Assembly: GCA_964397655.1 (NCBI GenBank)
Contig: CAYNKA010000014.1
Location: forward strand, 23,234-87,233
DNA: 64,000 nt
Direction of reading: 5' to 3'
Source: an uncultured Spirochaetaceae bacterium
GTDB taxonomy: Bacteria; Spirochaetota; Spirochaetia; DTKZ01
The stretch's first letter is position 1. Each line of letters starts with the position of its first letter. Below the pieces are notes generated by a model, which was not told the DNA's origin, did not search any database, and saw only the letters and a list, made by a program, of their open reading frames with translations. Made by a program: the position numbers and the translations under genes. Below are positions 60,697 to 62,132 of this stretch, piece after piece.

Positions 60697-61545
60697 ATGA
60701 AAAAAGCTTTGATTACGGGAATTACGGGGCAGGATGGTTCCTATCTTGCGGAACACCTGTTATCGCTGGGATACAAAGTTTACGGCGTCATCAGGCGCAC
60801 CAGTACGGTGAATTTCGACAGGATACAACATATCGTCGACGACATCGAATTGGTCAATGCGGATTTGCTGGATCAGTTTTCCCTGTTCGAAGTGTTGGAG
60901 CATGCGAAACCCGACGAGGTCTACAATTTGGCCGCGCAAAGCTTCGTTCCCACCTCGTGGAATCAACCCGCTTTATCCGAGAAGCCCCTACGGCGTTACG
61001 AAACTGTACGGTAATTGGATAACGATAAATTATCGGGAAAGTTACGATCTATTCGCTTGTTCGGGAATCCTGTTCAATCATGAATCGCCGCGGCGGGGAT
61101 TCGAATTCGTCACCCGGAAGATCACGCATAACGTCGCATTGCTGCGTGAGAAGAAAATCGAAAGTTTCGACATCGGAAACCTCGAAGCGAAGAGAGATTG
61201 GGGATTTGCGGGCGATTACGTCAGAGCCATGCATCTGATGCTCAATCAAGACAGACCCGACGATTACGTCATAGCTACCGGAGAGACGCATTCCGTGAGG
61301 GAATTTTGCGAGCGAAGCTTCGAGGCTGCGGGAATTCCCATCGAGTGGCGAGGCTCCGGCCTGAACGAGACCGCGGTGAACAGGAAAACCGGTAAAGTCG
61401 TTTTGCGGATAAGCGAAAATTATTATCGGCCCGCCGAAGTCGATGTATTGATCGGTGATTCCAAAAAGGCCAGAGACTAATTCGGTTGGCGTCCCGAGGT
61501 TTCCTTTTCCGATAAAATTGCTGGTGGTGGGGTCCGCCGAAGAGT
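60697..61545 (+). pseudogene. gmd: GDP-mannose 4,6-dehydratase, disrupted (internal deletion with frameshift plus an in-frame TAA)
   Basis: The N-terminus MKKALITGITGQDGSYLAEHLL...NLAAQSFV is intact. It then jumps in the +1 frame to [10 protein letters not shown]...FNHESPRRG...[12 protein letters not shown], losing about 55 aa. A TAA at 61478-61480 sits where Gln is expected (KARD*FGWRPEVSF). Confidence 0.7.
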
Positions 61546-62132
61546 ACAAGCGGAAGAGCGGCAGGGAAATACGGTATTCGGAAGAAGATGAATTGCTTTC
61601 CCATAACATATACGGAGCTACGAAAATAGCGTCCGAAGTGATCGGCAAAGAATATGTGCGTCAGTACGGATGCAATATCTGCTTCACCAGATCGTTCAAT
61701 CATTCGGGACCGGGGCAGGCGGATAATTATGTCTTGTCCGAATTCGCGAAGCAGTGTGCCGAAATAAAAAAAGGGAAAAGACCGCCTGAAGTCGCAGTCG
61801 GCAACGTTGATCTGTCTCGGGATTTCCTCGACGTAAGGGACGTGGTTTCCGCCTACGAGATGATAATGAGATCGGGGAAAAGCGGTGAAGCCTACAATGT
61901 GTGTTCCGGAAACTCGTACAATCTGAGGATCTTGCTGAATCATCTCGTTTCCCTGACAGGAAAAAAAGATGTCAGGATCGTGACGGACGAAGGAAAATTG
62001 CGGGACGGCGAACCTTCGATCGTCTCCGGAAGCCCTGAAAAAATCGTGAAAGACACCTCATGGACGGTCAAATATTCGATCTATGACACGCTGAGCGATT
62101 TGTACAATTATTGGCTCGCCATGCCGGATTGA
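61455..62132 (+). pseudogene. GDP-6-deoxy-D-lyxo-4-hexulose reductase (Rmd)-like SDR, 5'-truncated (no Rossmann N-terminus)
   Basis: The ORF begins mid-domain at LLVVGSAEEY and retains YGATK...FNHSGPGQ...NVCSG. The first ~110 aa, including GxxGxxG, are absent. Confidence 0.55.

Follow-up and report, generated by a model that had tools for sequence, protein, structure and literature searches.

Remains of a gmd and rmd-like gene pair at a variable sugar-gene locus in an uncultured Spirochaetaceae bacterium

The window, a 64,000 nt stretch of a contig from an uncultured Spirochaetaceae bacterium, carries at positions 60697-62132 the broken pieces of two adjoining genes that are related to gmd and rmd. 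They raise the question whether this organism has lost a deoxyhexose pathway of its own, or whether the pieces are the debris of genes acquired from elsewhere, an artefact of assembly or a remnant that still serves a purpose. The segment is most probably what is left, without function, of a GDP-D-rhamnose-type cassette of two genes, eroded and probably horizontally acquired, at a variable surface-glycan locus. Coordinates refer to the window unless a contig is named.

Surviving pieces of the gmd and rmd-like genes

The original prediction, made from the sequence alone, was that a gmd gene and an rmd-like gene are pseudogenised here, and this is borne out by the presence of both features in the segment and by matches to Pfam, TIGR01472 and PDB structures that lie far beyond chance. 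The gmd gene survives in two pieces. Fragment A (60697..60969, + strand) comprises the start codon, still preceded by the Shine-Dalgarno-like sequence AAGGTGA, and the GITGQDG sequence at residues 8-14, a GxxGxxG Rossmann motif that is invariant in the alignment with intact Gmd. Its open reading frame (60697-61014) opens with MKKALITGITGQDG, and the Gmd homology within it ends at 60969. Fragment A matches positions 1-95 of the Pfam profile PF16363 (GDP_Man_Dehyd; E 2e-31) and positions 1-96 of the NCBIfam model TIGR01472 (gmd; 96 bits), and aligns with residues 4-96 of the structure 2Z1M. Fragment B (60965..61477, + strand, +1 frame) matches positions 146-314 of PF16363 (E 2.3e-67) and positions 148-316 of TIGR01472 (257 bits) and ends in GDSKKARD. 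The YxxxK active-site motif is kept in fragment B as YGVTK, and the consensus YGVAK occurs in a second haplotype, L007. The closest intact Gmd proteins (an alignment with seven) share 68-74% identity with the relic over the retained parts.

Between the two fragments lies deletion junction 1 (60967..60970, + strand), delimited by comparison with L007 and with the seven intact Gmd proteins nearest to the relic. Seven nucleotides are left of the 153 expected, so that 146 nt are gone, equivalent to 48 codons plus 2 nt, which places fragment B in the +1 frame. All seven of these proteins agree on the length of the gap, in which 47 residues and the following Thr are absent, and the internal loss of about 55 aa that had been predicted is thus corrected to 48 residues. 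The predicted +1 frameshift itself is upheld, as junction 1 recurs identical and gap-free in L007. In terms of the Aquifex Gmd (2Z1M) the relic lacks residues ~97-144, a stretch within which the segment QASSSEMFG falls. In SDR enzymes the catalytic set includes a Ser/Thr and a Glu, located ahead of YxxxK in the S/T-S-E segment, and we take the lost stretch of 48 residues to be the one that supplied both in this protein. The prediction that gmd retains its N-terminus and most of its catalytic region is therefore right as to the N-terminus and overstated as to the catalytic region, from which the SSSE Ser/Thr-Glu segment has been deleted.

The next lesion is an in-frame TAA (61478..61480, + strand), at a column where intact Gmd homologues have Lys. 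It is followed by a recognisable gmd tail, FGWRPEVSFSD (61481..61513, + strand; identified by alignment with intact Gmd), and past VSFSD (61513) the last ~14-23 codons of the gene are absent. The stop that had been predicted before this tail is present in the window; it is polymorphic, L007 having AAA (Lys) in its place. A functional Gmd is expected to be encoded by a single unbroken ORF of ~320-345 aa that reaches the TIGR01472 equivalog cut-off of 415 bits. The relic is instead divided between two frames that give the 96 and 257 bits mentioned above and ORFs of 105 and 207 aa. The first gene is clearly descended from Gmd (TIGR01472, PF16363; 2Z1M, 1DB3), with which it shares the Rossmann motif and YxxxK, but unlike Gmd it is frame-shifted, carries a stop and is without the 48 residues that include Ser/Thr-Glu as well as the C-terminal end, and so is a pseudogene. 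Without the Ser/Thr-Glu segment and out of frame, it is predicted to be incapable of yielding an active enzyme.

The gmd 3' end abuts the rmd-like piece at 61513/61515. The latter (61515..62132, + strand) corresponds to approximately the C-terminal two-thirds of the protein, starts from KLLVVGSAEEY and contains no internal stops. Its 61515-62129 portion matches positions 124-330 of the Pfam GDP_Man_Dehyd profile (E 1.2e-28). The top PDB match is the Rmd of Aneurinibacillus thermoaerophilus (2PK3, residues 121-313 of 321, E 7.7e-37) followed by 6X3B (E 2.4e-31), and the intact rmd homologue in contig L005 gives the same ranking. No NCBIfam model names the piece, and its assignment as rmd-like relies on the fact that its best structural matches are Rmd enzymes and that intact relatives have a homologue right after gmd; in these relatives gmd is directly followed by a rmd-like gene of 306-312 aa, within polysaccharide clusters, and the relic likewise sits directly after gmd. 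Whether the enzyme was specific for D-rhamnose or 6-deoxy-D-talose is not readable from its sequence.

As had been predicted, the rmd-like gene has lost its Rossmann N-terminus: in alignments with the intact genes of L004 and L005 the homology begins at residue 107-109 of the intact relatives, and the ~106-108 N-terminal residues that form the nucleotide-binding fold of Rmd are absent. The Ser and YxxxK region is retained. The SDR fold is nevertheless incomplete, the N-terminal NAD(P)H-binding Rossmann domain being gone, and with the loss of its cofactor-binding domain the fragment is predicted to be incapable of forming an active enzyme. Measured against the intact pairs in L004 and L005, a second deletion of ~370-390 nt extends from the gmd 3' end to approximately codon 107 of rmd. 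The proposal that a single deletion removed the gmd 3' end together with the rmd 5' end fits both this junction and the gmd-then-rmd order in relatives.

Two haplotypes and the order of the lesions

The window derives from a metagenome contig, which leaves room for the suspicion that the lesions arose in assembly or sequencing and that the site in fact holds intact gmd and rmd genes. The window forms part of the 98,480 bp JGI metagenome contig 3300022666 Ga0248168_1000301, and the locus L001 is 100% identical to window 50002-64000. A separate sequencing run, ERR14964774, yielded the 3,353 bp Logan assembly L007, which covers window 59258-62610 without gaps and differs from it by 26 substitutions (99.2% identity). 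Both deletion junctions are present and gap-free in L007. Since a different run with 26 single-nucleotide differences carries both deletions, these are not assembly artefacts, and for the deletions the objection of sequencing error is thereby answered. Deletions of 146 nt and ~380 nt are also untypical of sequencing errors. Furthermore, fragment A has no near-identical intact allele among 5.8 billion protein clusters, and its sole match there above 77% identity is the L007 relic itself. On the side of an artefact are a possible consensus error in the nearby cysD gene, which is split by a 1 nt loss in a short A-run, the end of a further Logan contig exactly at junction 1, and the TAA, which is seen in the window contig only. 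Even were the TAA erroneous gmd would still be dead, and an artefactual origin of the lesions can be given almost no credence.

The contig that ends at junction 1 is L002 (SRR6476076), which is 100% identical to window 59543-60968. Its end at 60968 may be due to chance, low coverage or a graph branch from a second, perhaps intact, allele.

At position 61478 L007 has an A, giving AAA (Lys) where the window has TAA, from which it follows that the TAA postdates the deletions. It would be a later change specific to the lineage of the window, or conceivably an error, on an already dead gene. The gmd parts of the two haplotypes differ at five positions, one synonymous and four non-synonymous or nonsense. 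Two changes are derived in the window, A to T within YGVAK and, within LYGHW, H to N, each in a column with a conservation of at least 90%, and L007 has a Y to F change where all seven closest homologues agree. Both lineages thus alter conserved gmd sites, as expected in the absence of constraint, though the differences are few and there are none in the rmd part.

The differences between the haplotypes are unevenly spread. The TAA/AAA site is the only one between 61014 and 62342 (1.3 kb), and on either side of this near-identical tract the divergence is ~1.35% (left, 59459-61013) and ~1.65% (right, 62343-62584). The 864 bp from 61479 to 62342 are free of differences (p ~0.012 under uniform scatter). 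The simplest reading of this mosaic would be a recombination tract that the two came to share recently, because synonymous sites are identical too. A rmd fragment devoid of both stops and substitutions might also be taken as a hint of constraint; the recombination tract could explain it equally well.

Another reading is that the remnant is still functional, either as a stand-alone C-terminal Rmd domain translated from a GTG at 61455 or 61524, or with the rmd 3' end acting as promoter or leader of the downstream gene mtnA. The ORF of 205-225 codons without stops, the lack of haplotype substitutions over 61479-62342 and a weak sigma-70-like match at 62083-62111 upstream of mtnA are consistent with this. 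Nonetheless the whole nucleotide-binding Rossmann fold is absent, the candidate starts are not preceded by a Shine-Dalgarno-like sequence, and the identity of synonymous sites points to the recent shared recombination tract rather than to selection. Shuffled sequence gives a promoter match at least as good, and promoter-like sites in general at least as often, and no Rfam element is found in 55000-64000. A residual function is therefore very unlikely. The reverse-strand ORFs across the relic (199 and 222 aa) have no family match.

The retained gmd parts have changed little. In comparison with 119 intact homologues all 60 invariant columns are kept in the relic, as are 88 of the 89 with a conservation of at least 97%; the one that is not lies at the junction. 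Among the 123 columns conserved to at least 90% it has seven violations, as against a mean of 2.5 in intact proteins. The near-completeness of the conserved columns indicates that the decay of gmd is young, yet the deletions are older than the split of the two haplotypes, which are 0.8% apart. The relic consequently offers an order of events, with two shared deletions and then a lineage-specific stop. It is proposed that the two deletions, one of 146 nt in gmd and one of ~370-390 nt from the gmd 3' end into rmd, came first and would be common to the whole sampled population, and that an AAA to TAA nonsense change later arose in the lineage of the window. We infer that the cassette formerly functioned in this lineage and that it was eroded by deletion in situ. 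As a counterpoint, the fragment may have been in this broken state when it was acquired.

Composition and flanking genes

The relic lies within a low-GC segment of 2.5 kb (~59660-62150) between metK and mtnA, with ~48-50% GC against 62-70% in the flanks. The left edge of the segment is an intrinsic-terminator-like hairpin with a T-run after metK (59631..59663, + strand), which has a 10 bp stem with seven GC pairs and is conserved in the relative L089; here GC drops from ~0.62 to ~0.50. The right flank is mtnA (62164..63294, + strand), which encodes methylthioribose-1-phosphate isomerase (Pfam PF01008) and has a GC of 0.68 and a GC3 of 0.87. No notable direct or inverted repeats flank the segment, and the 215 bp spacer at 60482-60696 shows no similarity to genes beside intact gmd. 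The idea that the segment had been inserted in a conserved metK-mtnA operon was considered and dropped, since a scan of GTDB with MtnA gave none with metK upstream. The same scan of GTDB representatives found no relative above 70% identity.

The GC3 of the relics is 0.59-0.64 and that of the two small genes upstream of them is 0.48-0.59. The host genes tested range from 0.68 to 0.91, including gyrA/B, dnaA, dnaN, recF and yidC of the origin region, and the closest intact gmd/rmd pairs have 0.59-0.62. Being outside the host range and resembling its distant homologues in GC3, the cassette looks acquired rather than native, and horizontal acquisition is probable on this compositional evidence. 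Low GC by itself is a weak sign of transfer, as the origin genes on the contig are also GC-poor, although less so at GC3.

The replication-origin region spans 35277-47581 of the window and has ~50-56% GC compared to 60-68% in the rest of the window. In this region gyrA-gyrB (minus strand) are divergent from dnaA-dnaN-recF-DciA, which are followed by yidC and jag. This order, together with the names of several homologues, would fit a spirochaete as host.

The original prediction went further and read the broken genes as the recent loss of a deoxyhexose modification of the cell surface, that is, as an inactivated GDP-D-rhamnose/deoxyhexose pathway of the organism itself. In keeping with this, the retained sequence is only slightly decayed, the gmd start codon and its AAGGTGA remain, and glycan genes (SDRs, a GT4 glycosyltransferase and an ABC-2 transporter) follow a few kb downstream. 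If the relic was the only gmd, a rmd-like paralog among them would also have been left without a Gmd. This paralog is an intact 305 aa gene located 7 kb downstream on the same contig (L003 18299-19216), which is 57% identical to the rmd of L005 and has a host-like GC3 of 0.82. Its cluster (L003 14525-20579) comprises cysD, cysNC, another SDR, the GT4 glycosyltransferase and the ABC-2 transporter. The search for intact paralogs thus succeeded for rmd, whose cluster lies in a 6.6 kb extension past the window (L003), and no other gmd was seen in the 64 kb window or in this extension. Against a native pathway are the foreign codon composition, which matches distant homologues and not the host, the lack of a glycosyltransferase or manB/manC attached to the relic, its flanks of methionine-cycle genes and the different sugar cluster that a relative has at this locus. 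The loss of a native pathway is thus plausible but on the whole less likely than not. What holds of the predicted recent loss is the word recent, given the little sequence decay; the loss of the modification itself is a reasonable guess, weakened by the composition, the flanks, the variable locus, the missing glycosyltransferase and the rmd-like paralog.

Within the downstream cluster, cysD (sulfate adenylyltransferase subunit 2; L003 14525-15420, ~3.5 kb past the window) is itself split into ORFs of 95 and 203 aa by an apparent 1 nt loss in GGAA(A)GG; either this gene has been disrupted as well or the consensus is wrong here.

A variable locus downstream of metK

The relative that informs on the history of the locus is L089, a 341,796 bp ENA contig that was reached through a homologue of a 159 aa ORF upstream of the relic (84% aa identity). 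L089 is ~80% identical to the window at the nucleotide level over 8.8 kb up to the metK end, and again over the pair formed by a nucleotidyltransferase (NTase) gene and this ORF (orf159). In the left flank, which is the part compared, the order SDR...gcv...ahcY-metK-NTase-orf159 is common to both. The homology ends at 60511, and what follows in L089 is a further MNT/HepT pair, a small ORF, a HU-like gene and then a CDP-sugar cluster of 31-45% GC that includes genes for a glucose-1-phosphate cytidylyltransferase-like protein, a 4,6-dehydratase, a sugar isomerase, a C-methyltransferase and an aminotransferase. Within 10 kb past the end of homology L089 lacks gmd and rmd as well as mtnA. As the content differs after a shared left flank, the site that follows metK and the NTase pair is a variable sugar-gene locus, and the gmd-rmd relic is the remains of one of its occupants.

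The end of homology coincides with a truncated copy of a palindromic repeat, of which only the left arm is present (60490..60512, + strand). The full repeat is an imperfect palindrome of ~115 nt with the core CACGAAGGCACGAA...TTCGTGATTTCGTG, and it occurs in 5-7 copies in L089 (8800-11460) and once in the window. In L089 the repeats flank a GxxExxY ORF and two nucleotidyltransferase/toxin pairs. Three of the L089 copies were folded, of which two form hairpins (z -4.6 and -3.7) and the third is not significant (z -1.3); the copy in the window does not form a hairpin when folded. Since the repeats of L089 flank small cassettes and precede the swapped-in sugar cluster, and the homology of the window ends in a truncated repeat, the stretch downstream of metK could be envisaged as a hotspot of cassette exchange, in which glycan cassettes would come and go through the action of the repeats, in the manner of an integron or by way of MITEs, and the gmd-rmd relic would be a by-product. 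This idea is speculative and improbable. Of wider interest in this region is the repeat-bounded variable locus after metK.

Comparable remnants are known from the O-antigen clusters of Yersinia. The O:1b cluster of Yersinia pestis has four inactivated genes, remnants of tyv, galF and gnd occur in Yersinia clusters, and such remnants are read as footprints of cluster replacement or loss (PMC5399914). The relic resembles these in consisting of broken sugar-nucleotide genes of atypical GC at the edge of a locus whose content varies between relatives. In contrast to the Yersinia clusters it is situated between methionine-cycle operons and beside a toxin-antitoxin-like pair, and it belongs to an uncultured host. 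It can be regarded as an ordinary leftover of gene-cluster turnover, and as a record of the turnover of surface-glycan genes in an uncultured bacterium it matters only a little. In annotation its ORFs are to be marked as pseudogenes and left out when GDP-D-rhamnose capacity is assessed.

The NTase of the toxin-antitoxin-like pair is a small MNT-type protein of 101 aa (59700..60005, + strand; Pfam PF01909 and PF18765) encoded by the first gene of the low-GC segment, and shares 77% aa identity with its L089 counterpart, which likewise follows metK. Its 159 aa partner (60002..60481, + strand), a putative HEPN-like toxin, overlaps the NTase stop and has no Pfam or NCBIfam match. MNT/HEPN toxin-antitoxin pairs are composed of a minimal nucleotidyltransferase and a partner with the HEPN Rx4-6H motif. 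Codon 113 of orf159 (60338-60340) encodes Leu in the window (LNNLAH) and Arg in L007 and L089 (RNNLAH, Rx4H), and thus the putative catalytic Arg of the HEPN-like toxin has likely been lost in the lineage of the window. A second NTase (96 aa, 47% identical to the first) is encoded together with a 149 aa partner that contains RNEIVH at L003 13770-14499. This second pair sits just past the end of the window after MTAP, where it opens the downstream glycan/sulfate-activation cluster, and its 149 aa partner is 26% identical to the 159 aa ORF.
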